A DNA stretch of 13,415 nt from Nitrospinaceae bacterium (GCA_965223665.1 CBDCXH010000003.1:1-13415), one strand, 5' to 3'; counted from the stretch's first letter, positions 283-13,415 are shown. The notes: generated by a model not told the origin, from the sequence alone. Translations and numbers: made by a program.

Positions 283-945
283 TCATTTAGAGATTTTCAA
301 TTTCTTTTCAAAACTTGAAACTTTTCTCAATAATTTCTCCCATAGGTTTGGATCCACACCCAAAACTTCTGCCATAACCTCTCCGGAGAGGACAGCAAAA
401 AACATTGCATCTTCGGCAAGAAATAGTTGACTTGGAATCTTAGTTTCGTCGCGATCACAGCTCAAATATAAGCAGGCTTGCCTTATCTCCTCAATCTTTC
501 CATGTTCAGCATCTTTAATAAATTTTGCAACCCGATCAACTCCTAAAATATGATCTAACCTCGAGTTCACTAATGCTCCTTGGCATGCTGCCATTAAATG
601 TTTACTTCGGTGTTTATAAAACCAATCTCTTCTATTGACTTCACAATAATCATCTGGCGTTCCCTTAGAAAAACTTATTAGTTCAAATCTAAGCGGACAT
701 AATTTTCCGGTTTCTTCTAAAGTTAATATTGAGAAAAATATAGAAAACGAATATTTTTTCGATAAAAATAACTCTGAAGCATGGCCCCAACATTCTTCAA
801 TATATCCAATGTATTTTAGGCTTTGACTGTAGGCATCATCAAAGGTGGGCCCTTTTAAAATTCTAGGGGGTTTTCCAATTCCTATTAATTTACAGTGCTC
901 CTTGAATAACCTAAAAGCGTCTTTTTTGTTAAGACTTTCTTCCAT
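283..945 (-). CDS. AbiV-family (HEPN_AbiV) abortive infection protein
   Basis: 220-aa ORF with the AbiV-like pattern A-x-x-L-F...Y-S-F-S-I-F-F-S-I-L-T-L-E-E-T-G-K, then FYKHRSKH and RQACLY. Recognised from family motifs. Confidence 0.75.
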   Translation of the reverse strand: MEESLNKKDAFRLFKEHCKLIGIGKPPRILKGPTFDDAYSQSLKYIGYIEECWGHASELFLSKKYSFSIFFSILTLEETGKLCPLRFELISFSKGTPDDYCEVNRRDWFYKHRSKHLMAACQGALVNSRLDHILGVDRVAKFIKDAEHGKIEEIRQACLYLSCDRDETKIPSQLFLAEDAMFFAVLSGEVMAEVLGVDPNLWEKLLRKVSSFEKKLKISK

Positions 946-1318: not shown

Positions 1319-1342
1319 GTCTACTCACGACCCTTAGCAGTC
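1319..1342 (+). repeat. Site S1: 9-6-9 imperfect palindrome, putative recombination site
   Basis: GTCTACTCA-CGACCC-TTAGCAGTC; intergenic, ends 28 nt before the ATG at 1371. Confidence 0.75.
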
Positions 1343-1370
1343 ATATAACCCTTTTCTACCAATACCAGAT

Positions 1371-2609
1371 ATGAACATCTTTTACTCATGGCAAGCTGAT
1401 ACACCCGAAAAGATCGGCAAGCAATTTGTGCGTCAGGCACTCGACGATGCCGTCAAAGAACTCGCAGAAATATTGGAGCTTGAGGAAGCAGAACGCCCAG
1501 TCGTTGATCAGGATACACTGGGTGTCATGGGATCTCCGGTGATCGTCGAAACAATTTTCGAAAAGATCCGAAATGCGCAGGTTGTTGTCGCCGATTTAAC
1601 TCTCACTTGTGCGACAAAGGAAGGTAAGAAACTAGTCAACAGTAATGTTGCTTACGAACTCGGTTATGCTCATGGTCATCACGGTGATGAAGTTATACTA
1701 ACAATAATGAATACTCACTATGGCCAGGCTGATGATCTCCCATTTGATTTAAAACATCGGAGGTGGCCCGTAAGGTTTGATTTATCACCAGAAACATCAA
1801 AAACAGAGCGACGCAAAGCAAGAGAATCGCTCGCAAAAGAACTCGCCGATATATTACGGCGTTATCTGCAGGGGGTCACTCCCGAAAAAAAGTTTGAACC
1901 TAAACCTTCAACCGTAAATGCAGCCTCCTATTGGAATGAAGGAGAGTTATTGGTCAAATATGGAGGTTCAAATTTTCAAGATGAGCTTCTAGAACTTGGC
2001 TATAACAAAGATCAGCCGCTTATCTATCTGCGAGTGTGGCCCGAAAAACCGCTTGAAGAGCTCTCAGGTAGCCAGCTGGGAGACAATAATTTATCGGGAA
2101 TTGATCCTCTCATGGGACGATATGGGGACTATTACTATCTCCGCAACCAATACGGAGCTATTACATGCTCAAAGGAAAGTACGGGAAAATTAATTGCGAC
2201 AACACAGCTTTTTAAGAGTGGCGAAATTTGGGGCATTGATTCTTCCCTACTAAGACATCGCAACGATTTTGCCACCTACTTCGTCCCAACTACTGTTTTT
2301 GAAAACGGCATAATTCGTTCATTGAATATTTACCTAAAGATAGCTTTTGGGCGTTTGGGATACTCCGATCTTGTTCATTTTGAAGCAGGATTGGTAAATG
2401 TTGAAGGTTTTAAATTGGCCATGCCACAAAATTACATTGACAATTTTTGGGGACCAATCTTTGAAGATATTTCTATTGAAGCAACTATCGATAGGAATAC
2501 ACCAGAAACCACCAATAATGCTTTAATGAAACTATTTGAGAAAGTCTTTGACTCTGCTGGTATGAAACGACCTGATAAATATAATAATTTTCCTCCTTCG
2601 ACTGTCTGA
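1371..2609 (+). CDS. TIR-like/nucleoside 2-deoxyribosyltransferase-like N-terminal domain fused to a ~230-aa C-terminal domain; candidate defence protein
   Basis: 412 aa. N-terminal motifs IFYSWQAD, GSPVIVETIFEKIRNAQVVVADLT, NSNVAYELGYA (putative catalytic Glu) and LPFDLKHRRWP are typical of TIR/NDT-like Rossmannoid effectors. Confidence 0.7.
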   Translation: MNIFYSWQADTPEKIGKQFVRQALDDAVKELAEILELEEAERPVVDQDTLGVMGSPVIVETIFEKIRNAQVVVADLTLTCATKEGKKLVNSNVAYELGYAHGHHGDEVILTIMNTHYGQADDLPFDLKHRRWPVRFDLSPETSKTERRKARESLAKELADILRRYLQGVTPEKKFEPKPSTVNAASYWNEGELLVKYGGSNFQDELLELGYNKDQPLIYLRVWPEKPLEELSGSQLGDNNLSGIDPLMGRYGDYYYLRNQYGAITCSKESTGKLIATTQLFKSGEIWGIDSSLLRHRNDFATYFVPTTVFENGIIRSLNIYLKIAFGRLGYSDLVHFEAGLVNVEGFKLAMPQNYIDNFWGPIFEDISIEATIDRNTPETTNNALMKLFEKVFDSAGMKRPDKYNNFPPSTV

Positions 2610-2671
2610 GAGTTCTCTAGCAACTATTCTGAAATTGATACTATTGATGCAGATATTCTCTTGCCGTGAAG

Positions 2672-2695
2672 AACAGCTTTTGGCCGAAAACGGTC
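2672..2695 (+). repeat. Site S2: 9-6-9 imperfect palindrome, putative recombination site
   Basis: AACAGCTTT-TGGCCG-AAAACGGTC; 62 nt after the stop of the 1371-2609 gene. Confidence 0.7.
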
Positions 2696-2797
2696 TATCT
2701 AGAGGTATATTATCTTTTTTTGAATATCCGGATTAGAGTATTTGCAGAATTAGCAAGTTTAGCAGCTCGACGCTTTAAAGTTACTAATTTTGACTCG

Positions 2798-3022
2798 TTA
2801 CGCAGGAAAGAATCGAATTCCAACGGCACGGTGAATTGGAATTCCACTAAACAATACTAACTCGGGGACGATCACAACCCCACCGCCAAAACCGAACATG
2901 CCCAACAGGAAACCAGTTCCCATTCCTACAAGTATGAGCAGAATGGCACATCGAGTCGTAAATTTAAGTTTCCCACCTCCCTCACGCTGGCATGCTGATG
3001 TCTCTAGCTTAGATTTATTCTT
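2798..3022 (-). pseudogene. Internal fragment of a TauE/SafE (TSUP family) sulfite exporter gene
   Basis: Not in the ORF track. Manual translation of the stop-bounded frame gives ...SACQREGGGKLKFTTRCAILLILVGMGTGFLLGMFGFGGGVVIVPELVLFSGIPIHRAVGIRFFPA*, matching the TSUP motif G-x-x-x-G-x-F-G-x-G-G-G-x-x-I-V-P...H-x-A-V-G. No start codon upstream of the homologous part; it stops right after the motif. Confidence 0.8.
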
Positions 3023-3127
3023 TTACTGATAAATAGCATTAAAATTATATTAAAAGCTAAGATGAATATAGCTTTTTGCCTAGCTATCTCCTGGTTACAA
3101 GGAATTTGAGAGCAACATACCAAATTA

Positions 3128-3156
3128 TTGACATTAACGGCAAGTTGAAATAGAGT
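3128..3156 (+). promoter_or_regulatory. Putative sigma70 promoter for the 3188/3854 gene pair
   Basis: TTGACA (3128-3133), 17-nt spacer, TAGAGT (3151-3156); 31 nt before the ATG at 3188. Confidence 0.65.
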
Positions 3157-3187
3157 GCCGCAACTCAATTTAAATTAAAAAAAGCCT

Positions 3188-3814
3188 ATGCCAAATAATA
3201 TATATTTCCATGTAAACAAAAGGCCAAACATTTTGCCGCCAGAATCACCTGATTTTGAGTTGATGAAACAAGGACAGCAGATAAAGGTTGGAGATGAAGT
3301 GAATCCGTTTTTTCGACGCTGGAAAAATGAAATCCCATTTAAGGTTTATGGTAGCGAGACTTTTCCAAATACTCTGCCCTTTAATGAATTTTTGGAAAAT
3401 CTTGTAAAAGGAGAATACAACGAACATGCGGAGTTTCCGGGCTTTCTATGGAACCCATTAATGGTCTATTTGGGGTGCCTCAGCGAATTGGTTTTGGAAT
3501 CAATAAGAATTAAAGAGTTTAAGGCCTTACCTTCAAGACAGAGATGTTTATGGCTTATTAAGACCCTAGATGAAGCTGTAGAATGGGCCTCAGATACTTC
3601 TTCTGGTAACAAACATCAGATAGTGAGGGTTCGTGTTGAAGGGAAAATATTTGAATGCGATGCATCTTTGTTAAATTATGAAAACCAATCTTTGTCAGAT
3701 ATGGAGGAAACGGCGCGATTGTATTGGTTGGGGAAACAACCCTTTGAACGAGAGGAAATTCTTTTTGAAGGAAATGCCGAAGTAATTGAAGTTCTATCGA
3801 ACGAACAGCCTTAA
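3188..3814 (+). CDS. DUF2441-like protein (possible ADP-ribosyltransferase-like fold)
   Basis: 208 aa with ELVLESIRIKEFKALPSRQRCLW, GKIFECDA, ARLYWLG and EILFEG, matching my recollection of DUF2441 proteins; N-terminal YFHV strand. Confidence 0.65.
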   Translation: MPNNIYFHVNKRPNILPPESPDFELMKQGQQIKVGDEVNPFFRRWKNEIPFKVYGSETFPNTLPFNEFLENLVKGEYNEHAEFPGFLWNPLMVYLGCLSELVLESIRIKEFKALPSRQRCLWLIKTLDEAVEWASDTSSGNKHQIVRVRVEGKIFECDASLLNYENQSLSDMEETARLYWLGKQPFEREEILFEGNAEVIEVLSNEQP

Positions 3815-3853
3815 CCCATTGTTTGATGGAAAAAGCTCAGGGGATTTTAAAAA

Positions 3854-4288
3854 ATGAAATTCTGGGAAAAATGGATACAAAGTAGAAAGCTAAGGAAACA
3901 ACTAAAGAAGAAAGATAATAAATGTAAAATTTGCGGTTTACGGGCCGAAATCTTAGAAGATGACGATAAATTTGTCTTGTGTCATAAACTTTTTGAAGCT
4001 GGAATTGTCAATCAAAGGTTTCCAAGAAATATCTTCATGGGAACAGAAAACTCAAAAGGAAACAGTTGTCCAGATGAATATTGCGTAATTGGCTCTAATA
4101 AGTGGAATAGGTTCGATGAGAATTGTCCTTGGTGGCAGTTTAAAAATGAAGAATTAGGGTTAGAAGGTCATGTCTCAATTTATCATGCCAATAGGAATGC
4201 TGAGTCAGCTCGATTCCTAGCTATTGTTGCAATAATAATTTCGATTTCTATCTTATCGGTGATAATTTATATCAATTTTATTAGATAA
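3854..4288 (+). CDS. Hypothetical protein, Cys-containing, with C-terminal transmembrane helix
   Basis: 144 aa with CKIC and four further Cys, and a hydrophobic tail FLAIVAIIISISILSVIIYINFI. Starts 39 nt after the 3188-3814 gene on the same strand. Confidence 0.65.
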   Translation: MKFWEKWIQSRKLRKQLKKKDNKCKICGLRAEILEDDDKFVLCHKLFEAGIVNQRFPRNIFMGTENSKGNSCPDEYCVIGSNKWNRFDENCPWWQFKNEELGLEGHVSIYHANRNAESARFLAIVAIIISISILSVIIYINFIR

Positions 4289-4400
4289 GAAATGGCCCTC
4301 TACATTCCCTACAAATACCCGAATTGCTTCGAAAGCGCGACACTGATACAACCATAGCATAAAAATGGTATGAGATCAAAACTGTCAATCAAGCTCTAAA

Positions 4401-4424
4401 GACAGCTTTCGACCCAAAGCGGTC
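4401..4424 (+). repeat. Site S3: 9-6-9 imperfect palindrome, putative recombination site
   Basis: GACAGCTTT-CGACCC-AAAGCGGTC; arms are complementary at 8 of 9 positions; intergenic between 4288 and 4625. Confidence 0.8.
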
Positions 4425-4624
4425 ATTCTCGGTAACTGAATATACAAACCGATCGCAAGTCTTTTAGAGACACCTTCCTTATAATATAGCTGTACCACCA
4501 TAACGCTTTCAAAAGATATCGGGCATCCGGAAGGGATGTGACGTGAAAGCATACAAGTACAACCTGCCGCTATCAATCTGCTGACTTTCTCTCTCCGGCA
4601 AATTGGGGTACACTCTCCCACATT

Positions 4625-5239
4625 ATGATTCGATTCCTTTTATTCATTGTCGTTGTTCTGGTCTTAGGGTTCCCGACCTCATCCATCGCTGCCGCTCCAA
4701 ATAGTATTCATATTGAAGAAAATGAAAAGGGCATCACGGTTTGGGTGAATGAAGCGTCCTTGGATGATGTGTTGGAGTCCATCACAGAAAAAGCCGGGAT
4801 TCAGTTCCGCTCGTCCCCTTGGATAATGAATGACCCGATCACGGTCAACCTGAATGCTCCAAACTGGCCAACCGCAGTGAGACAGCTTCTCGAATCCTAT
4901 AGCCGAGTGGAACTGTTAAATTCCCAGCAGGAATTGACCCAAGTTCATATCCTGTCAAAGTCAGATGATACTGCAAGTCTCAAACCTGAGAACCCGAGAA
5001 CAGCCTCGGTATCCACAACAGCATCCTCCCCTCAGTTGAACCGAAGGCAATTACGCAAAATAGGTAAACGACCCTTTAGGGCGCCGCTCCCCCCAAACCT
5101 GTTCGACGATCCAGAGATACGAAACTTTTTAAACCAGTACAATATTCATACACTGGAAGATATGAAGGATGTCAAAAAAACCCGAAGAGTTCGAGTTCGC
5201 GCCCGTGATTTATTGCTAAAAATGACCCGGGCTAAATAA
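4625..5239 (+). CDS. Secreted/periplasmic protein with a secretin-N/STN-like domain
   Basis: 204 aa. Signal peptide MIRFLLFIVVVLVLGFPTSSIAA; segment ITVWVNEASLDDVLESITEKAGIQF...ITVNLNAPNWPTAVRQLL resembles secretin/TonB N-terminal domains; basic C-terminus; no beta-barrel. Confidence 0.6.
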   Translation: MIRFLLFIVVVLVLGFPTSSIAAAPNSIHIEENEKGITVWVNEASLDDVLESITEKAGIQFRSSPWIMNDPITVNLNAPNWPTAVRQLLESYSRVELLNSQQELTQVHILSKSDDTASLKPENPRTASVSTTASSPQLNRRQLRKIGKRPFRAPLPPNLFDDPEIRNFLNQYNIHTLEDMKDVKKTRRVRVRARDLLLKMTRAK

Positions 5240-5255
5240 AGAAACCCGAGTCATT
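5221..5255 (+). repeat. Inverted repeat/hairpin overlapping the stop of the 4625 gene
   Basis: AATGACCCGGG (5221-5231) and CCCGAGTCATT (5245-5255) are complementary at 10 of 11 positions. No U-tract follows. Confidence 0.5.
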
Positions 5256-5370
5256 GTAAACCATACCCATTGCCAGTTTGGGAGAGCAAAGTCACGACAA
5301 CACCTCTCCCGCTAAAGATTCCGACATTAAGACCGGCACATCAACCTTTAGGAATATCGGATGACCGCCA

Positions 5371-5399
5371 TTGACAAATCAATTGTGGTGACCTACTAT
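5371..5399 (+). promoter_or_regulatory. Putative sigma70 promoter for the 5489 gene
   Basis: TTGACA (5371-5376), 17-nt spacer, TACTAT (5394-5399). An AGAGGAG ribosome-binding site precedes the ATG at 5489. Confidence 0.75.
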
Positions 5400-5488
5400 C
5401 CTCCCAAATATATTAAAGAAGCAGTCATTACAGGAAACCCCCATCAACGTTTTGAATGGGAAAGTTATCGATATAGAGGAGAATACCT

Positions 5489-6043
5489 ATGTTTAAACGA
5501 ATATACCTGATTGTATCTATTGTAGCGCTCAGTTTCATGATTGCCCCTACACTAGTGTTGGCGAACACAGCAGACGGCAATACCCCTGCTGAGGAAACCG
5601 TATGCGACGGACAAAGCGGAGCGGCCTATGGTCTGTGTAACGCTTACTGTGAGGCCATGGACTGTGACAGCGATAGTCCCAACGCAAACCAATCAGCCTG
5701 CGACAAGGTTGGAACCAAGTTCGAAAACATTACGGGAGAGATTCCACCTTGTGAAGTAACTTGTCCCTGCGCGGGTGTTGTACTTGATACGGGTTATAGT
5801 TGGGAGGATACAAGCGGGTTCGATTCTTGTCAAAACTCATCAACTTTCACGGTTCTCAATGATACTATTAATGGTGACAAAGTGCTCAAGAGAGCCAATC
5901 AAAATGGCTGCGATTTTTGGGACGATTTCAGATCCCCAGGTAACTTTTTTTCTACGCAAACGACACCAGACGAACACAGAGCTTGTGTGAGAGACCTATT
6001 GGCTCAAGCGAAGGCTGCAGATGTCACCTGCCCAACTCCTTAA
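5489..6043 (+). CDS. Secreted cysteine-rich protein of unknown function
   Basis: 184 aa. Signal peptide ending ...TLVLA; 12 Cys including VCDGQSGAAYGLCNAYCEAMDCD and PPCEVTCPC; strong RBS. Confidence 0.8.
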   Translation: MFKRIYLIVSIVALSFMIAPTLVLANTADGNTPAEETVCDGQSGAAYGLCNAYCEAMDCDSDSPNANQSACDKVGTKFENITGEIPPCEVTCPCAGVVLDTGYSWEDTSGFDSCQNSSTFTVLNDTINGDKVLKRANQNGCDFWDDFRSPGNFFSTQTTPDEHRACVRDLLAQAKAADVTCPTP

Positions 6044-6190
6044 AGGGAGCAAGCAATAAAAACCCGCAAACGTTTCCACAATTGGGTAAGCGGGGAGGTT
6101 GCCCATCCTTGAAACAGGCGAATGGTCTGCCCGATGTGCTGTTCATCGGCACAAGGCTCTAAGCCGGGAGATGGGTTCTAAATAAAATTA

Positions 6191-6227
6191 AAAAGATGGC
6201 GGTCCTTCGGGGCCGCTATTTTTGTTT
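6191..6227 (+). terminator. Intrinsic terminator, possibly bidirectional
   Basis: Stem ATGGCGGTCC (6196-6205), TTCG loop, GGGCCGCTAT (6210-6219), then TTTTGTTT; an A-tract precedes the stem. Confidence 0.85.
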
Positions 6228-6238
6228 GTGTGTTTAAC

Positions 6239-6262
6239 GTCTACTTTTGGCCGATTGCGGAC
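6239..6262 (+). repeat. Site S4: 9-6-9 imperfect palindrome, putative recombination site
   Basis: GTCTACTTT-TGGCCG-ATTGCGGAC; directly after the terminator, between convergent genes. Confidence 0.75.
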
Positions 6263-6427
6263 AATCGAAGTTGCTAGGGAACGTCTGCCTGGGCGAGTGC
6301 GAAAAACTGCCGTTTGTAATTGAGAAGTGGTCCTATAGTGTTCACAGTTCCCGTGGGCTATAAGCTAGTTACGTTTACAACCTTAACGATTCCTTACCAC
6401 AGGGCTAGTCGGTGGCACCAAGGGGAG

Positions 6428-7420
6428 TTAGTGGAGCAAATCCTGGGTTTCTGTCCAGATATATAAATCCTCCAAAAAATCACCCTGAATTCTCCACAGA
6501 AATCCATGATCCTTCGCTTTACCATCTTTCAGTGACAGCGTGAAATCGAGATATACCTTGCCTTCGCCAATTAAACGCAAGAATTTAATGATTGAAGGTG
6601 ATTTACAATAATTAACGCTCTCTATGCAGCAAACTTCTTTTTCCTTTTCTACCCGGGTAGATAGCGTTATATACGCTGTTTGACTATGCTTGGAAAGCAA
6701 TGCTTCCTCAATGCTTTCTGCATCGTATTCCAGTACTTCGTTACCGCCATTCATTACAACTACTCGATCCTGCTTGGGTACTAAGTAAAATCCAAATGAA
6801 TCAGGTGTATTGCAAAATGACGTGTATAGGGCCTTACGATTTCGCTTGGCATCCTCATAACCATATCTATCCAGTAAATCCATCTTGTCAGAACATCCTG
6901 TATATTTGGATGGCACCCTTGAAAATAACGTCTGTAGCGTTTTATCGCTCTTTGTCTTTAATTCGATGCCCATGAAATCGGGATACTTGCTGCTATTTTG
7001 TGGGATACCAAGTGCATTCTCTATAGATAGACCAAATCGGCCAGTGCCTTTACCAATGACTGGGATTGGTCCTTTACGTTGCAACCCTCGTAGTTTATGA
7101 AACAAGATTTCATGTGGTTCACGCTCTTGAACCCGGCCTTTTCTGACGCGATCAAGGACAACTAGTTTTAGGAGATTCTGATACTGAAACTTGGGTTTCA
7201 ATCCATCGCAATATGGGAGATTCTCCTCATATAAAACAGCACTGATATTCTGGAACTTGTATTCAAAGGCCTTGGCACTGCGATTAGGAAATTTTTCTGC
7301 CAAACCCTGGTATATGGCTGATTTAACTGGCTCCTTCCGCTTGTTCTGGTCATCAAGTAGCTTGAAATACGCATCTACTGCGCCTTTCACTTCTGCTTCT
7401 GTCCATGATTTATTCTTCAA
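6428..7420 (-). CDS. MvaI/BcnI-family PD-(D/E)xK endonuclease with an extra N-terminal domain
   Basis: 330 aa, TTG start with AGGTGA RBS (7425-7430). Motif GTGRFGLSIENALGIPQNSSKYPDFMGIELKTK...TLFSRVP...KDHGFLWRI. The N-terminal ~90 aa carry WTEAEV...YFKLL...RSAKAFEYKFQNISAVL...GLKP. Confidence 0.8.
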   Translation of the reverse strand: MKNKSWTEAEVKGAVDAYFKLLDDQNKRKEPVKSAIYQGLAEKFPNRSAKAFEYKFQNISAVLYEENLPYCDGLKPKFQYQNLLKLVVLDRVRKGRVQEREPHEILFHKLRGLQRKGPIPVIGKGTGRFGLSIENALGIPQNSSKYPDFMGIELKTKSDKTLQTLFSRVPSKYTGCSDKMDLLDRYGYEDAKRNRKALYTSFCNTPDSFGFYLVPKQDRVVVMNGGNEVLEYDAESIEEALLSKHSQTAYITLSTRVEKEKEVCCIESVNYCKSPSIIKFLRLIGEGKVYLDFTLSLKDGKAKDHGFLWRIQGDFLEDLYIWTETQDLLH

Positions 7421-7652
7421 TTCATCACCTGTATTTGTGGAAATAGGCCTTTGCAGCTAACAGAACCGCTGTCAGTTCAGAATATTCTCAGATTAATCCA
7501 CAAAAAATCAAGAAGCTACATCATAGGGCGTGCTAATTGAAGATAATTAAGTGATGTTTCTTACCTTCTATAATTTTAACCAGACTCAAGAAGAGTGTTT
7601 ATTTGAGGATTAAACGGCTGACCCGCTCCTGTAAGTTGTACAACAGATGAAT

Positions 7653-7676
7653 GTCCGCATCTGGCCGACTACTGAC
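7653..7676 (+). repeat. Site S5: 9-6-9 imperfect palindrome, putative recombination site
   Basis: GTCCGCATC-TGGCCG-ACTACTGAC; 75 nt beyond the stop of the last core gene (7752). Confidence 0.7.
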
Positions 7677-7751
7677 GACCCTATACTGACAAACCCCCAT
7701 AATCCATTCCAGATATTAAACCAATCATTTAGAAAACCTACTTAGCAATTT

Positions 7752-8057
7752 TCATTTATCAATTAAACCCACCAACCAATTCAATTCACGCCTTACCCTC
7801 ATAGAATCTTTTCTTTGTTGAATAACTTCTGTAGAACGGTTCCCGTGTTTCCAGTTGGCCTTATGACTGCGTTCCAAACCTTCCAACGTGCGAGGTCCTG
7901 TGCTCTTACCCCCATGCAATCGACAACGTCCATTTTTCATTGCGGGACATTGGCAAGGAGTTCCTTTTCTAGTTTTTGCCCCACACCGAGGTGCTTGGTT
8001 GGCATAGTTTAAACCTATCTTCCAAATGGGTTGATGGGGTTCATTGATGTTTATCAT
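7752..8057 (-). CDS. HGGxSTG-domain protein
   Basis: 101 aa: RCGAKTRKGTPCQCPAMKNGRCRLHGGKSTGPRTLEG...KANWKHG. Overlaps the upstream gene by 17 nt. Confidence 0.9.
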   Translation of the reverse strand: MININEPHQPIWKIGLNYANQAPRCGAKTRKGTPCQCPAMKNGRCRLHGGKSTGPRTLEGLERSHKANWKHGNRSTEVIQQRKDSMRVRRELNWLVGLIDK

Positions 8058-8751
8058 GATCCCCCCTTGTATCTAAGGCCCCGGTGACTACTGCTTGGCC
8101 TCCATCCTTAACGTTGATATGTTGCACAGTGATGGTTTGGTTTCCTCCCTTTCGAAGTTTATGGAGAGCCATTAAACCTTTCTGAAAACTATCCATCATT
8201 CTTGCAGAAGCATTGGATGCTCGTATAGACTCTAATGAATAATATTCCTTACTTTGGAAGGTGATTGCTTTATCACTTTCATTCAAATTGCTCAGTGAAC
8301 GACTGGCAAATGTCATTGCTAATTTATGAGCGGCCCCTAATTGGTGAGCCAACATTTTTTCCAATGAGTTCTTAGCTTGGATAGTTTCAGCCGCATCCAG
8401 AGCGAGTCCGGTGCAGTCTGTATCGAATATCAATTGCAGTCGTTCTTGACTCGCTTCAGCAGTTACATTATCAGGTTTTTCGACGGTATTAATCAAAGCG
8501 GGTAATTCCTCAACTCTTTCTTTGGACAATGATAATTCACCACCACAACCCACAGTGGGATGCTCATTCTCTGGAATTTTTATGGCTTCCTGAACCTGCT
8601 CTTCTAACTCATTTGCATCCAAACGCATGAAACTGGCTCCCAATTTATCTACACAAGGAGGAGATTCCAGTTCATTAGCCGTAGCTCTCAGGTTTTTTAC
8701 TTCAACCTTATCTCTTAATGCTTTTTTTAATTTATCTTTTGGCTTTGACAT
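8041..8751 (-). CDS. Conserved hypothetical protein of the type found upstream of HGGxSTG genes
   Basis: 236 aa with LALDAAETIQAKNSLEKMLAHQL...ARMMDSFQKGLMALHKLRKGGNQTITVQHINVKDGGQAVV; recalled as a recurrent neighbour of HGGxSTG genes in integrated elements. Confidence 0.75.
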   Translation of the reverse strand: MSKPKDKLKKALRDKVEVKNLRATANELESPPCVDKLGASFMRLDANELEEQVQEAIKIPENEHPTVGCGGELSLSKERVEELPALINTVEKPDNVTAEASQERLQLIFDTDCTGLALDAAETIQAKNSLEKMLAHQLGAAHKLAMTFASRSLSNLNESDKAITFQSKEYYSLESIRASNASARMMDSFQKGLMALHKLRKGGNQTITVQHINVKDGGQAVVTGALDTRGDHDKHQ

Positions 8752-8785
8752 AATTCATCCAAATGAAATTAGAATTATATGCTTA

Positions 8786-9085
8786 TTAATTTTTCCAATG
8801 TTTTTGCAATTCTTCTCTAATATCCTGAATTTTCATGCTACCTGGTTTCCACCAATGGTACTTTTGATTGCAATCAAAAGGAATTACTAAACTTTTTTGT
8901 TCATTTAAATAAGGTTTGGGTGCTAACTTTTTAATTATTTGAATTAATTGAGGCTTAAAACACTTTATTTGTTCAATCAGTTCTTCCTCAATAGGTTGAT
9001 TTCCTGCGCACTTTAATTGGTTTCCTTCAACACTTAACTCAAAACCTTTTTTTTGTATTTCTTTCAAAAATTGCTGAGGGGTCAT
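8786..9085 (-). CDS. Small protein with a TubC N-terminal docking domain-like region
   Basis: 99 aa: FLKEIQKKGFELSVEGNQLKC...LIEQIKCFKPQLIQII. Its start overlaps the primase stop as ATGA (9082-9085). Confidence 0.65.
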   Translation of the reverse strand: MTPQQFLKEIQKKGFELSVEGNQLKCAGNQPIEEELIEQIKCFKPQLIQIIKKLAPKPYLNEQKSLVIPFDCNQKYHWWKPGSMKIQDIREELQKHWKN

Positions 9086-11547
9086 ATCTTTACCTCATGT
9101 ATAGAAGAGTCCAGATTTCCTTTAGATTTCTTAGGAAAAACGCCGTTATCGCCGTCCGGGCCGAACAAATCTTTATTTTTAAAGGTTGTATTTTTTGGCG
9201 GCCTTTTGTCGGCGTTGGCCTGGGTCGACAAATCCTCGTCAACAAGGAACTCTTTATTTATAAAGGAGTTATTCTCCATTACGTTGGTCATGTCGGCCTG
9301 TTCGACATTTTCCGGAACTTTTCTAAATGTGACAATTTTTCGACCAGTGCCTTTTTTTCGTTGATCAAAATCGACTTCGATTCCGATTTCCAGCAGGGTA
9401 GGAGCCAACCTCCTGACTCGGTTCGAAAGTACGCTTGGAGATTTGGGCCATTGTTTGTTTCCACTGACTCTGAAATCTATCTGTTTACCGAGTGCGGAAA
9501 ACAAATCTGAAAAGCTACCTTCCCATTTTTCTTGCATGACAATGAATTGAATAATGGCCTGGGCCAATACATCTGTTTCAAGACTGTTTTCAATCGCTAA
9601 GGCAAGGTTATTCTCATATTCTTTTAGAAAAGATCCAGATTCCCAACCTAGAAATGATTCAGCAGCCGTAACCCACTTTGCAAAATCGGCCATGCGAGGA
9701 TACGAATTCAAGGTTACCTTTTCGTATTCCTTTAGGGCATGACAAACAGTATCCAATAACGCTCCTAAAATTTTGGGACGGGCTTCTTCAAAATCTTTTA
9801 ACAAAGTTTTTTCGTCTTTCCTTTTTTCTCTTGGGATTCTTGGCAGGAAAAAAATTAAAGATCTGTCTCTAAGGTCATCCCGTTTGCAGATGTCATCAAT
9901 ACCATTCAGAATCATGGGACGCTGGGAATCAAAAATGATCTCTTCGGAATCGGTATATAATTCTCGGGTGCTAAATCCTCCCCCAGTCGATAGTCTGCAG
10001 AAAGCATCGGATAGCCACGGGGGAATACCACTCAAATTGTCAAAGGCTAATATCCAAGAGTTTCTGGCGCTGATCATCAGATCTCGGCACTCTTTCGGTG
10101 TACTTCTCAATTGCGATATTGAAGGATCGACTACAGAACGGATGATGCGACTGAAGGTTGACTTGGCAGAACCGTGTTCGCCTTGAATGACCAATATAGG
10201 AAAAGGGCCTTTGGATTTTAAAGCTGCGATCAAATAACCCACGACCAATTTTTTCTGGTCCTCACGAATATTAATGAATTTAAACAATTCATCAACCTTA
10301 CCCCCAGATACTGGATGAGGAAGGGGACCCATTCCCCTCGCCCGGACAAATTTAACCGGAGATTGGGAAATAACTTTCCAACCTGTGCAAGTGATTTCTA
10401 CGACTTCCCATTTGTCATTGCACAGATCTAGGTAAATATTTCCATCCGCTTCACCTATTCGTGTATAAACTGGAATGGTTTTGCCTTCAAATCTAGCTCT
10501 GCCTTCCAAAATTCCTAAGGCATCGCTTAGAGCTTGATTTCCTGGGGGCTTATTGAACTGAGAGAAAAATTTATGACCTAGCCATAACTTGAAACTCTTC
10601 GATCGGACTTGACTGGTTTCGTTATGGTCCTCTACCAGATAAGTTACATAGGCTGTCCCATCAGGGTTGTGAAAAAATTCGCAACTAGAGGTCAGGTCAA
10701 TCAACGACTGCGCTTGGGTTGGTTTTTCATCCCCTGAAAGATCAGAGAAAGAGCCATTAGAGATAGTTACGTGCGAATCGGGAATATTTTCTTCACCAAA
10801 ATAACTCGCATAGCTTCCTTGGTATATAGGAGCTTCATCGACTAACTTCTTTAATTCTTCAATTGAATTTTCCTCAAGGTAATCAGAAACGTCACAGCCT
10901 GATTTGCAGTCCTTAAATCGAATGATTTTGATGGACTGAGCATATTTAAAAAGATGTTCCGAAACCAATTTGCCATGAGCACGTCCCTTTTCATCATTGT
11001 CTTCAATAATCACTACTTCCCGATCTTTAAAGTAGAGATTGTATTCTGATTTCCATTTTGCCTCACCATCGAAGTTGGTGGTTGCCGCAAGGTTATGTTT
11101 GGATAAGTTATCTGCATCCTTTTCACCTCCCACCAAATAAACTGTTCCTGTACTCTTTAATAACTCTGGAAGTCTATAAAGGACCCGTTTGGTGTTGCCA
11201 AGTTTCCAAGTCCAGCCTCCTGATCGTTTTGGTTTTCTAAGTCGAAATTCTTTAGAAGGGTATCTTACTTTTTGAAAAAGGAGATTCCCAGTCTCATCAT
11301 GATAAGGATATACTTTGATTATTGTTTCTGAATTGCCATCTTCTAGTCTACCCTTCCAACCACAGTGGTGACAAAACCAAACCCGTTTGTCTAAATTGAC
11401 GGACAGGCATCGTGCCGTCTTCTTTTGACGCCCATGAGAACATTTTGGGCATAACGTGCTTACTTCTCCAGCTTGTTTCTCATCAATCTGAATACCAAAG
11501 TCAGCAATCGAAATAGCCTCTTTTAATTTTTCTTTATCAATATTCAT
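9082..11547 (-). CDS. Primase-helicase: Zn ribbon + TOPRIM + C-terminal ATPase (SF3-like)
   Basis: 821 aa. CPKC...WFCHHCGWKG zinc ribbon; TOPRIM VYLVGGEKDAD and IIEDNDEKG; Walker A-like GEHGSAKST; Walker B-like ILAFDNLS; STGGGFSTRELYTD. Start overlaps the upstream stop (TAATG). Confidence 0.85.
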   Translation of the reverse strand: MNIDKEKLKEAISIADFGIQIDEKQAGEVSTLCPKCSHGRQKKTARCLSVNLDKRVWFCHHCGWKGRLEDGNSETIIKVYPYHDETGNLLFQKVRYPSKEFRLRKPKRSGGWTWKLGNTKRVLYRLPELLKSTGTVYLVGGEKDADNLSKHNLAATTNFDGEAKWKSEYNLYFKDREVVIIEDNDEKGRAHGKLVSEHLFKYAQSIKIIRFKDCKSGCDVSDYLEENSIEELKKLVDEAPIYQGSYASYFGEENIPDSHVTISNGSFSDLSGDEKPTQAQSLIDLTSSCEFFHNPDGTAYVTYLVEDHNETSQVRSKSFKLWLGHKFFSQFNKPPGNQALSDALGILEGRARFEGKTIPVYTRIGEADGNIYLDLCNDKWEVVEITCTGWKVISQSPVKFVRARGMGPLPHPVSGGKVDELFKFINIREDQKKLVVGYLIAALKSKGPFPILVIQGEHGSAKSTFSRIIRSVVDPSISQLRSTPKECRDLMISARNSWILAFDNLSGIPPWLSDAFCRLSTGGGFSTRELYTDSEEIIFDSQRPMILNGIDDICKRDDLRDRSLIFFLPRIPREKRKDEKTLLKDFEEARPKILGALLDTVCHALKEYEKVTLNSYPRMADFAKWVTAAESFLGWESGSFLKEYENNLALAIENSLETDVLAQAIIQFIVMQEKWEGSFSDLFSALGKQIDFRVSGNKQWPKSPSVLSNRVRRLAPTLLEIGIEVDFDQRKKGTGRKIVTFRKVPENVEQADMTNVMENNSFINKEFLVDEDLSTQANADKRPPKNTTFKNKDLFGPDGDNGVFPKKSKGNLDSSIHEVKI

Positions 11548-11798
11548 TAATTTCCCCCCAAAACCCAGTCAAAATATTTTGGGACATTAATGATTATTTT
11601 CTTACCCAGCTTGATAATGGCCTCTGATTTTTCTAACCCATTATTTTTTCGGTTGAAAATTTGGTAGCGTAGACCTCCTTCACTAATAAAGTCATATTTG
11701 TTGCAAAATTTTGCCACTGTTAATAATTCTGGGACCTCAGTGGTTACAGGCGTAAGAAAACGATTTACCGTCTTCGAATTGTGATTTCTTTCATTCAT
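11547..11798 (-). CDS. AlpA/excisionase-like winged-helix DNA-binding protein
   Basis: LLTVAKFCNKYDFISEGGLRYQIFN...NGL...AIIKLGKKIIINVPKYFDWV. Start re-called to the ATG at 11798 (83 aa) because an AGGAG RBS precedes it. Position upstream of the primase is typical of satellites. Confidence 0.7.
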   Translation of the reverse strand: MNERNHNSKTVNRFLTPVTTEVPELLTVAKFCNKYDFISEGGLRYQIFNRKNNGLEKSEAIIKLGKKIIINVPKYFDWVLGGN

Positions 11799-11945
11799 AA
11801 ATTCAGCTCCTAAAATTGTTACCAAACAATAATCAACATCAATAAACAATATTGATTGTTTCTAACGAAATTTTAGGAATTTATGCTTTTATTTGACAGG
11901 GACATTAAAGGGGGGGAATTTGTCCTTAATTTCTGGGAGAAAAAA

Positions 11946-12767
11946 TTAAACCTTGGAGTGGGTAGGAAGATTTTTTATTCCTTTCCTTCGCAATCCTTTA
12001 ATTAAGGATTCTTTACTTTGGACAAAATCTTTGTGTTTTTTATAAACAAGGTCAATAATTTCATCTGATGTCAATCCATTTTCATATTTTTCTCCCATAA
12101 AAGTAAAGGGTTTGCCAGAGTTGGATTTTTTTATTACACGTTTTCGAGTTTCAATAATGGCTCCCCAGGGAATTGTTTTTCTTGGCGAGTTGACTAACCT
12201 AGCAACCAAACTTGCTGCTTTTTCAGTGCGTCCATGTTTCATGAAAATTCCGTCAATAAACCTTTTTAATTGAGTATGGACGAAAACTTCCTCTAAAATC
12301 TCTTCTATATAATCTATAGTAAATTCGTATTTGGTGGCAGAATCTAATGCCCTTCTAAGCAATTCGATCTCATTTTTTGTGAACTTTATTCCTTTAAATT
12401 TATTTTCTAAAATTTTTCCTTTTAGTTCTTCATAACTTTTTTTAATGGCCGATGCATTATCTACTAATTTTTTGTGAAACTCATTGAACTCACTCATTAA
12501 GGGATTATTTAGTTTTATGGTGTCCCATAAATGACCTCTTTGATGTTCTTCAAATTTTAGTAATTCTAAATCGTATTCTCCGCCAATTTCCAAACCTTCA
12601 ACCATCAAGTCAAAGTCCGATTCAGAGCCTTCAAAAAGTTTTTCAGATTGTAAGGGAATTTTATCTTTTAATTTTTCAAAACATCTTTTTTTTATTTCTT
12701 TCAAACTTAGACCTCTTTTTTCTTTTAGCCCTAAATATTTTATATAAAAAAGATAATCCAAACTCAT
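11946..12767 (-). CDS. Hypothetical protein (Lys/Glu-rich, AT-rich gene), possible regulator
   Basis: 273-aa ORF starting 2 nt after the integrase stop; no family recognised. Confidence 0.7.
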   Translation of the reverse strand: MSLDYLFYIKYLGLKEKRGLSLKEIKKRCFEKLKDKIPLQSEKLFEGSESDFDLMVEGLEIGGEYDLELLKFEEHQRGHLWDTIKLNNPLMSEFNEFHKKLVDNASAIKKSYEELKGKILENKFKGIKFTKNEIELLRRALDSATKYEFTIDYIEEILEEVFVHTQLKRFIDGIFMKHGRTEKAASLVARLVNSPRKTIPWGAIIETRKRVIKKSNSGKPFTFMGEKYENGLTSDEIIDLVYKKHKDFVQSKESLIKGLRRKGIKNLPTHSKV

Positions 12768-12769
12768 GA

Positions 12770-13415
12770 TTAAAGACCAAATATCTTTTCATTCATTTTC
12801 GATACTACGCTATGGGTATGCTGTTCTGAAAGGTGGCTGTAACGCTTCACCATCTGCAATGTTTTATGGCCAAGCACTTCTGCGATCTCAGCTAGCGAAG
12901 CACCGCTCATAGCTAGATAGGACGCAGCAGAATGCCTTAAATCATGGAACCTGAAGTTTTTGATTCCAGATTTTTTAAGCGCGTCTTCCCAGGAGGCTCT
13001 AATATCAAAAGGCTTTTTTCCGTCTTGACTAGGGAATAAATAGCGCGTATCAATCCTTCGTTTTTTGCTTAACTCTTTAATCACTTCAAGAGAACGCCCC
13101 GCAAGAGGCAAAGCCCGACGTTCATTATTTTTAGTTTGATTTAGTATCGCTACTTTTCTTTCTAAATCAATGTCGCTCCATTGCAAACTTAAAATTTCAT
13201 TTTTTCGCGCTCCGGTACTAAGAGCAACAACGACCACTGGATATAAAAAGGGATTGTCATCTTCCTGGCATACCTTCAAAAGCTTATCTCTTTCCTCATC
13301 ACTCAAGTACCTGACTCGTCCTCTGGGTTCCTTGGGCTTAGAGACTTTTCGCATTGGGGTATCATCCATCCATCCCCATTCTTTCACTGCAATGGTAAAG
13401 GCATGACTTAAAGCC
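12770..13415 (-). CDS. int: Tyrosine recombinase/phage integrase (5' part outside the window)
   Basis: Full catalytic set: TGARKNE (R), QTKN (K), HDLRH (HxxR), LGHKTLQMVKRY (H, Y). The frame stays open to the window edge (ALSHAFTIAVKEWGW), so the GTG at 13387 is internal. Confidence 0.95.
   Translation of the reverse strand, partial: ALSHAFTIAVKEWGWMDDTPMRKVSKPKEPRGRVRYLSDEERDKLLKVCQEDDNPFLYPVVVVALSTGARKNEILSLQWSDIDLERKVAILNQTKNNERRALPLAGRSLEVIKELSKKRRIDTRYLFPSQDGKKPFDIRASWEDALKKSGIKNFRFHDLRHSAASYLAMSGASLAEIAEVLGHKTLQMVKRYSHLSEQHTHSVVSKMNEKIFGL

Follow-up and report, generated by a model that had tools for sequence, protein, structure and literature searches.

Paired palindromic sites of two spacer classes bound gene cassettes in a Nitrospinaceae bacterium and recur across phyla: candidate lox-like recombination sites

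A stretch of 13,415 nt from a Nitrospinaceae bacterium (GCA_965223665.1, CBDCXH010000003.1:1-13415; hereafter the window) carries in its left half a row of cargo genes parted by five short palindromic sites, S1 to S5, and in its right half (7752-13415) an element with integrase and primase/helicase genes. The window is the whole of contig C4 of its source genome (G000; six contigs, 4.35 Mb, 38% G+C). According to our analysis, the palindromes are probably double-stranded, lox-like recombination sites that bound exchangeable gene cassettes, and the data point to a widespread exchange system for cassettes of defence and accessory genes in many bacteria. We describe the anatomy of the sites, their clustering, their conservation across phyla, the junctions at their spacers and their link to a recombinase; catalysis, cassette circles and the direction of transfer we infer. 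A first-pass annotation of the window had already reported the five sites, and this observation is confirmed: S1-S5 read as quoted at 1319, 2672, 4401, 6239 and 7653 and delimit units of 1353, 1729, 1838 and 1414 bp. Its interpretation, a capture and shuffling system that loads cassettes onto a satellite, is partly supported.

Results

Two classes of site can be told apart by their spacer: L sites have the spacer CGACCC, R sites the spacer TGGCCG (CGGCCA on the other strand). The full unit is a 12-6-12 palindrome, AATGTCCGCTTT-N6-AAAGCGGACATT, and the logos of 67 L and 60 R sites read AAT-GTCCGCTTT-N6-AAAGCGGAC-ATT, the spacer being fixed. Conservation is strong in one arm, in the spacer and in two flanking bases ('AT') and relaxed in the other arm. 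The first-pass annotation had described a 9-6-9 palindrome; the inverted arms around a spacer are indeed present, but the arms are self-complementary at just 5-8 of 9 positions and the unit is asymmetric. It was right in stating that the sites lack the cores of attC, which are absent from both the site sequences and the logos.

Pairing was surveyed at 33 loci with 131 sites from G000 and nine further Nitrospinales genomes (G numbers other than G000 and its sister genome G001 denote further genomes of the order). Most of these sites are intergenic (118 of 131). L sites lie upstream of the cargo with the strong arm towards the gene, and R sites start, in the best cases, 1-18 bp past the stop codon. 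Pairs whose strong arms face each other are almost always heterotypic, i.e. made up of one L and one R site (37 of 40 pairs, p 1e-8), and the orientation of the cassette genes is L to R in 25 cases and the reverse in 8. Among the close pairs, 8 of 14 have an offset of 26 bp, which corresponds to a double site R-AT-L. The arrays of G056, a genome of another family, read L, gene, R-AT-L, gene, R-AT-L, gene, R, and co-oriented cassettes that each end in a site are found in G056, in G000 and in other arrays. Compensatory changes between the arms did not exceed those in shuffles; because of this, a selectively maintained hairpin is improbable, and the palindromes would more likely serve as protein sites on duplex DNA.

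To search G000 we used a 27-bp position matrix built from 14 seeds, two of them from the window and most from elsewhere in the genome. At a threshold of 16 bits, 65 matches (both orientations) were found in G000 and none in 2 Mb of order-2 Markov sequence. There are 38 distinct sites, 33 of them intergenic and 35 in five clusters that make up 3.0% of the genome (Table 1). The earlier expectation of an island-enriched, intergenic motif that is not spread like a repetitive extragenic palindrome (REP) is therefore borne out, as is the remark that the element core holds no clear copy: window positions 7700-13415 contain no match of 12 bits or more. The idea of a loading system tied to a satellite did not hold up, since the largest array (17 sites, 110 kb) has no integrase and sites also lie by core genes, in prophages and on plasmids. 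Within the window, when up to 3 mismatches are allowed, the full palindrome consensus matches S3 alone (no match in 200 shuffles), and the half-site pattern of the relatives, at the same tolerance, finds 8 matches compared with a shuffle mean of 3.08 (8 or more in 4 of 200 shuffles); six of the eight lie within S2-S5, two elsewhere, and S1 is missed. The shuffle tests thus back S2-S5, and S1 is marginal. Conserved elements of ~70-140 bp with promoter-like hexamers lie directly upstream of L sites, before two Shedu and other cassettes (C1:2242090-2242186, C1:3031628-3031724, C2:34683-34779, C1:1554705-1554846 and C1:1558650-1558790); some of them are mini-modules between two sites of the same class.

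The junctions between backbone and cargo are placed at the sites by comparative data, in line with the earlier claim that the sites delimit cargo modules. In E. coli, the prophage slot between a DUF977 gene and hokD is occupied, depending on the strain, by NUDIX+HAD, RelA/SpoT, DUF5677, QueH or Sll1717-type ATPase cargo. The left flank is common to all five cargos through the outer arm and the spacer, and divergence sets in with the first base of the inner arm; the right flank is common to three of them from the spacer and outer arm onward. A backbone arm followed by spacer and cargo arm is the expected residue of a crossover within the core site, and a slot flank that ends exactly at the spacer is the mark of a site-specific crossover. 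One seemingly empty slot (L237) turned out to be an unrelated plain deletion.

Further junctions come from Nitrospinales. A cassette with a 276-aa methyltransferase is present in G000 and G056, and in both the tblastx homology stops exactly at the R site. The big island of G000 is a mosaic relative to G001, with 12 of 38 block ends lying within 160 bp of a site, which is an enrichment but far from a rule. Variants of the window itself were taken from contigs of three metagenome runs of one sample that holds it. In two of the three runs a variant contig joins 4427 to 6244 and skips cassette 2, which lies between S3 and S4; one contig has a loose end at 4397, where it diverges 4 bp left of S3, and a variant contig continues past 6263 into an L-type site, giving the canonical R-AT-L double site. 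Contig G015:C17, which has two sites at its bounds, was considered as a cassette circle and rejected for having no terminal overlap.

A recombinase does not recur beside the arrays. When 497 open reading frames (ORFs) from 25 loci were clustered, an integrase family appeared in just three loci, and a tyrosine-recombinase-like gene is present in only 9 of 152 loci with the motif; serine recombinases (PF00239) have no match in G000. G063 contains only two tyrosine recombinases, both Xer-like, and G015 two Xer-like ones and a divergent integrase, a set that would be compatible with action by Xer proteins but does not speak for it. The candidate enzyme is a tyrosine recombinase of 200-208 aa whose only domain is the PF00589 catalytic domain. 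Inverted sites of 33 nt stand on either side of the 208-aa candidate in an alphaproteobacterial genome (L265), in which another array contains a further copy that is broken. An orthologue in the Nitrospinales genome G021 (56% identical) has a site 30 bp past its stop codon, and G029 and G043 have remnants close to sites. Among plasmids, 549 carry homologues; the gene is bracketed by sites in an E. coli IncY plasmid and surrounded by them in Pantoea plasmids. In a plasmid of P. aeruginosa the flanking sites are diverged, with the same spacer. The family comprises at least 8000 metagenome clusters, many of them 81-97% identical, exactly 208 aa long and on very short contigs. These clusters carry names from three phyla, and copies of the small recombinase that are >80% identical carry Nitrospinales, Nitrospirales and Cyclobacteriaceae names.

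Association was tested at 80 metagenome recombinase loci, counting sites of at least 12 bits up to 130 bp downstream or up to 160 bp upstream of the gene. A downstream site was found in 18 of 78 loci (Fisher 4e-7) and an upstream site in 19 of 74 (Fisher 5e-8), compared with 7 of 228 control windows in each case. The association was found with the matrix, which weights the spacer; with a scan for the arms only, a site was seen upstream in 2 of 71 loci and downstream in 4 of 74. Of the two flanking sites, the one downstream begins 22-38 bp past the stop codon and is composed of a distinct gene-side arm, CGGCCA and the canonical arm; the one upstream belongs to the CGACCC type, its canonical arm being directed away from the gene. 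It follows from these site types that the recombinase gene lies between an R-type and an L-type site. On the strength of this statistical association, the small tyrosine recombinase is likely to be the enzyme of the system. At loci L282-L297 a conserved three-arm structure is seen within the 100 bp that follow the recombinase gene, in which the second arm of a short hairpin is the gene-side arm of the downstream site; this may be an accessory binding element. On plasmid pEM02 of Duffyella gerundensis (L231), the first site of a cassette array lies 18 bp past the end of two overlapping tyrosine-recombinase genes (2223-5313; 333 and 705 aa); this tandem pair was also considered as the enzyme and set aside, as it has no homologue in G000.

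Within the order, the exact half-site is found in 38 of 61 genomes (13 of 19 genera; reversed control 0-2 per genome), the counts for genus g2 being slightly too high owing to coding false positives. Indeed, the matches to 'TGACCGAAAGCGGAC' near xerC in this genus lie inside a conserved 152-aa ORF and were rejected. Several half-site matches lie within 400 bp of a contig start, and a 5-kb contig of G001 is an alternative array that branches at an R site, both as expected if strains differ at the sites. In G056 a phage capsid gene (L013, contig C22, 15515-16660) adjoins a cassette array; arrays thus also lie at the edge of a prophage or a capsid-bearing satellite in Nitrospinales.

Beyond the order, a scan of 185,579 species gave at least 118 loci with site matches. 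Among the matches listed for other phyla, 75 of 126 have the palindromic outer arm, compared with ~1% expected by chance; the matches listed include Sphingomonadales, Rhodobacterales, Lysobacterales, Pseudomonas, Burkholderiales, Mariprofundaceae, Nitrospirota and others. Arms and spacers recur in Alpha-, Beta-, Gamma- and Zetaproteobacteria. The arrays of other phyla adjoin core genes (e.g. pheST, mutY) and have no neighbouring recombinase, and 67 of the 86 further non-seed sites in these loci belong to three spacer classes. In Enterobacterales the arms are unchanged and the spacer pair is GTGCCA/TCGCTC. Sites of this kind are present on 832 plasmids, among them 495 of Klebsiella and 124 of Pantoea; 648 of 5426 E. 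coli genomes have them as well, nearly always singly and in lambdoid prophages. In Pseudoroseicyclus aestuarii (L191) sites with the spacer CGGCCC form head-to-tail runs with a period of 46 bp (4317-4478 and 5661-5960).

Discussion

In the mechanism that we propose, the crossover would fall within the 6-bp spacer between two 12-bp inverted arms. The inner sides of a cassette would carry the conserved arms, with L upstream as outer arm-CGACCC-AAAGCGGAC and R just past the stop codon as GTCCGCTTT-TGGCCG-outer arm. Since the two spacers differ, each class would pair only with its own kind, L with L and R with R. Either site could take up a cassette circle in which R and L abut as R-AT-L, and the arrays built in this way would have double sites in their interior and a single hybrid site at each end. 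A crossover of L with L together with R with R would swap the cargo, as in engineered recombinase-mediated cassette exchange, where two heterospecific spacer variants flank the cargo. The likely enzyme would be the recombinase of 200-208 aa that elsewhere lies between R-type and L-type sites. As it was not found in G000, the arrays there are orphan arrays, which might be acted on in trans or might have been in the past. A bolder version, about which we are rather doubtful, would be a pan-bacterial 'two-lox' cassette system with an integron-like outcome on double-stranded DNA: run by a highly mobile single-domain tyrosine recombinase of ~200 aa, it would let chromosomes, prophages, plasmids and satellites trade cassettes for defence, metabolism and resistance, from Nitrospinota through to E. 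coli, with spacer pairs as compatibility groups that define separate cassette pools.

A number of observations weigh against recombination at these sites by this enzyme. Only about a quarter of the recombinase loci have a site of at least 12 bits, and the recombinase locus of pMOL30 has none. Homologues of the candidate are absent at E≤1e-5 from G000, G001, G015 and G056, and two of these, G056 and G015, are the most site-rich genomes. Other E. coli prophages (L239-L241) occupy the DUF977-hokD slot without sites and with other breakpoints. That the sites lie at synteny breakpoints, as had been suggested, agrees with the 12 block ends mentioned above, but the other 26 of 38 block ends between G000 and G001 are more than 160 bp from any site. 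Similarly, the proposal that module homology ends at the sites holds for the methyltransferase cassette and the E. coli slot, but G015 has a homologue of cassette 2 (72-74% DNA identity, window 4583-6222) that lacks sites. The joint of 4427 to 6244 extends over only 20 letters at one of its sides and differs from the hybrid site expected of a clean crossover, and loose ends at 750, 2594, 3812 and 4730 of the window lie away from sites. Finally, the clusters in G000 were delimited after the matches were known, so that their p of 4e-50 is descriptive only, and related genomes are non-independent samples.

Other explanations have to account for discrete, conserved spacers and for junctions at the spacer edge, and these two features weaken all of them. 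The sites might be conserved punctuation, be it hairpins at gene ends or gene starts or a protein-binding insulator, with the cargo being swapped by short-homology recombination and no dedicated recombinase; T4-type phages, with their promoter/stem-loop cassettes, offer a comparison. The positions of the sites, in 5' leaders downstream of the promoter-like elements and 1-18 bp past stop codons, would fit such a role, as would the lack of a recombinase in G000 and the fact that the E. coli slot sites belong to the conserved flanks. However, homology-driven exchange should scatter the breakpoints, whereas the five cargos diverge exactly at the boundary of spacer and arm; furthermore, a few discrete spacer classes are held across phyla, and a quarter of the cassettes have the opposite orientation to their sites. 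Compensatory change between the arms, as noted above, is lacking. There is also no T run past the hairpin (the consensus is ATT followed by unconserved positions), for which reason an intrinsic terminator was rejected as well. We regard punctuation as unlikely.

A self-spreading extragenic palindrome that merely accumulates in variable regions, comparable to REPs and bacterial interspersed mosaic elements (BIMEs), would explain why imperfect palindromes of two types alternate in orientation between genes, and the 46-bp tandem runs of Pseudoroseicyclus, a form not seen in Nitrospinales, are REP-like behaviour that counts against recombination sites. Yet the motif has just 38 copies in G000, 35 of them confined to the islands, and a Y1/RAYT transposase (PF01797) has no match in this genome (98.6% complete). 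REPs are lineage-specific, in contrast to the present sequence, which is common to several phyla, and the heterotypic pairing around cargo counts against a REP-like family too. This makes a REP-like origin very unlikely. We give still less credence, in fact hardly any, to a non-autonomous transposon (mobile insertion cassette) with 28-bp terminal inverted repeats TGTCC...GGACA that inserts at AT and whose transposase lies elsewhere. Outer arms with a consensus of their own, AT at both ends, neighbouring ends that abut with AT between them, and population breakpoints at the outer edges of S3 and S4 all agree with it; but in E. coli the inner arm changes with the cargo, outer arm and spacer remaining part of the backbone, no transposase is found among 40 annotated cassette proteins, and the enzyme associated with the sites is a tyrosine recombinase.

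Lox-like sites, which we thus favour, share features with several known systems. As in integrons, cassettes are tandem, mostly co-oriented, often of a single gene and parted by a composite of two simple sites; the cargo is rich in defence genes, most arrays are without a recombinase (like clusters of attC sites lacking integron-integrases, CALINs), and the recombinase gene, if there is one, lies at a site-flanked platform. Unlike attC sites (57-141 bp), the present sites are 24-30 bp or, as doubles, 50 bp long; they show no sign of a folded single strand, the junctions lie in the central spacer, and the candidate enzyme has only ~200 aa. An assignment to attC was rejected, as the arms read GTCCGC...GCGGAC and units of 24-30 or 50 bp have no attC core boxes in the site logos. 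The integron integrase model IntI (TIGR02249) has its best match in G000 at E 4e-23, below the cut-off, and is above it in one of 61 genomes (G047).

A likeness to dif was also rejected. The classical dif-like site of G000, AGTTCCCATAACATATATTATGTTAACT at C1:720379 (- strand), 36 kb from the cumulative GC-skew maximum, has no arm in common with the motif, which agrees with the first-pass statement that the sites do not match XerC/XerD arms. In the dif modules of Acinetobacter plasmids, accessory genes lie between pdif sites for XerC/XerD (PMC6449649, PMC13141974). Both systems have arm-6-arm sites of alternating type and recombinase-free modules that are shuffled between replicons; however, pdif resembles the host dif and the present motif does not, and here the arms are alike, the classes differ in the spacer, and the spread is across phyla and into prophages.

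Similar in design is Cre/loxP with its engineered exchange format: there too, an asymmetric spacer lies between inverted arms, and the cargo stands between two spacer variants. The differences are that we deal with a natural system, that the arms have 12 bp and the spacer 6 bp, and that the candidate enzyme amounts to a catalytic domain plus ~40 residues. The first-pass reading of a tyrosine-recombinase site system is upheld as regards the layout of a simple core site, seen in the 12-6-12 logo and in the divergence at the spacer edge in five cargos; for G000 a recombinase for these sites was not found, and recombination is inferred. FimB/FimE invertases are also ~200 aa long and act on short inverted sites. 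The candidate matches the family model NF007371 ('tyrosine-type DNA invertase') only weakly (E 8e-6 and 2e-4), far below the cut-off; moreover, the spacers differ within most site pairs, and this speaks against simple inversion. We found no paper on the motif or the system in a literature search that excluded supplements and ~1.7 million PubMed Central articles; looking up 15-mers of the sites gave chance primer matches or nothing, and the portions of PMC10250229, PMC4957104 and PMC8138268 covered by a term look-up held no useful passage.

If the system is real, bacteria, phages and plasmids would have a further general route for the capture and swapping of single genes beside integrons and dif modules, and the origin of single-defence-gene hotspots in prophages and satellites would be explained. 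Its sites reach into well-studied organisms (648 of 5426 E. coli genomes, 495 Klebsiella plasmids) and provide a sequence signature by which metagenomes could be searched for accessory and defence genes. The system might also yield a tool, namely a compact natural recombinase and its heterospecific sites.

Gene content of the window and its surroundings

The features of the window and the site clusters of G000 are listed in Table 1. S1-S2 and S3-S4 are standard cassettes, the gene of cassette 1 running from L (S1) to R (S2) with sites on both flanks; the MvaI module has no L site of its own. S2-S3, which had been counted as a cassette, is instead an inter-cassette stretch; an interval of this type (R...L) is the position of the small recombinase in other genomes. 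Bases 2814-3023 of this interval are conserved in three relatives. When the cargo DNA of the window was compared with 60 relatives, only cassette 2 and short repeats gave matches.

Table 1. Features of the window (window positions) and site clusters of G000, with matrix scores or family matches
Feature	Location	Strand	Evidence
AbiV-like gene, left of array	283..945	-	PF18728 HEPN_AbiV, E 1.6e-12
S1, L-type site, spacer CGACCC, weakest of five	1319..1342	+	18.2 bits
Cassette 1 cargo, 412 aa, weak TIR-like match	1371..2609	+	PF10137, E 1.1e-4, under family cut-off
S2, R-type site, TGGCCG on + strand	2672..2695	-	26.4 bits
Inter-cassette interval (R...L) between S2 and S3	2696..4400	.	site types at ends
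DUF2441 gene in S2-S3 interval	3188-3814		PF10386, E 1.9e-17
144-aa ORF in S2-S3 interval	3854-4288		
S3, L-type site, full 30-bp form 4398-4427	4401..4424	+	34.9 bits
Cassette 2, two ORFs (4625-5239 and 5489-6043)	4425..6238	+	without Pfam family
S4, R-type site	6239..6262	-	31.6 bits
MvaI/BcnI-like endonuclease gene, inverted relative to neighbours	6428..7420	-	PF15515, E 5.2e-35
S5, R-type site 7653-7676, and overlapping weak L-type site 7667-7690	7653..7690	-	24.4 and 12.5 bits
Integrative element core (small ORFs, primase/helicase-like gene, tyrosine integrase), without sites	7752..13415	-	
821-aa primase/helicase-like gene	9082-11547	-	
Tyrosine integrase, truncated by contig end	12770-13414	-	
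Cluster of 17 sites	C1 1.457-1.563 Mb		matrix scan
Cluster of 5 sites	C1 2.242-2.244 Mb		matrix scan
Cluster of 6 sites, within second integrase element copy	C1 3.029-3.033 Mb		matrix scan
Cluster of 2 sites	end of C2		matrix scan
Cluster of 5 sites	window (C4)		matrix scan

A copy of the core of the integrative element, 90% identical, lies at C1:3022334-3026071, and C6 carries a related one. Direct repeats of 57 bp (96% identical; C1:3021193-3021249 and C1:3036239-3036295) enclose the 15-kb second copy of the integrase/primase element. In this second copy the cassettes lie between core and integrase, in the window beyond the core. Three stretches of ~40-75 bp in the window (3113-3158, 6298-6340 and 4287-4362) have copies with 86-92% identity scattered in genomes of the sister genus g2, and the one at 3113-3158 resembles a promoter. 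Elsewhere in G000, the region C1:1.40-2.24 Mb contains dense families of other interspersed repeats of 50-200 bp as well as ~25 paralogues of a 277-aa CBM96-domain protein (66-70% DNA identity). A tandem repeat with a period of 150 bp (~96% identical copies, C1:2235659-2236331) lies between two weak tyrosine-recombinase genes and adjoins the region of the C1 2.242-Mb cluster (cluster B).

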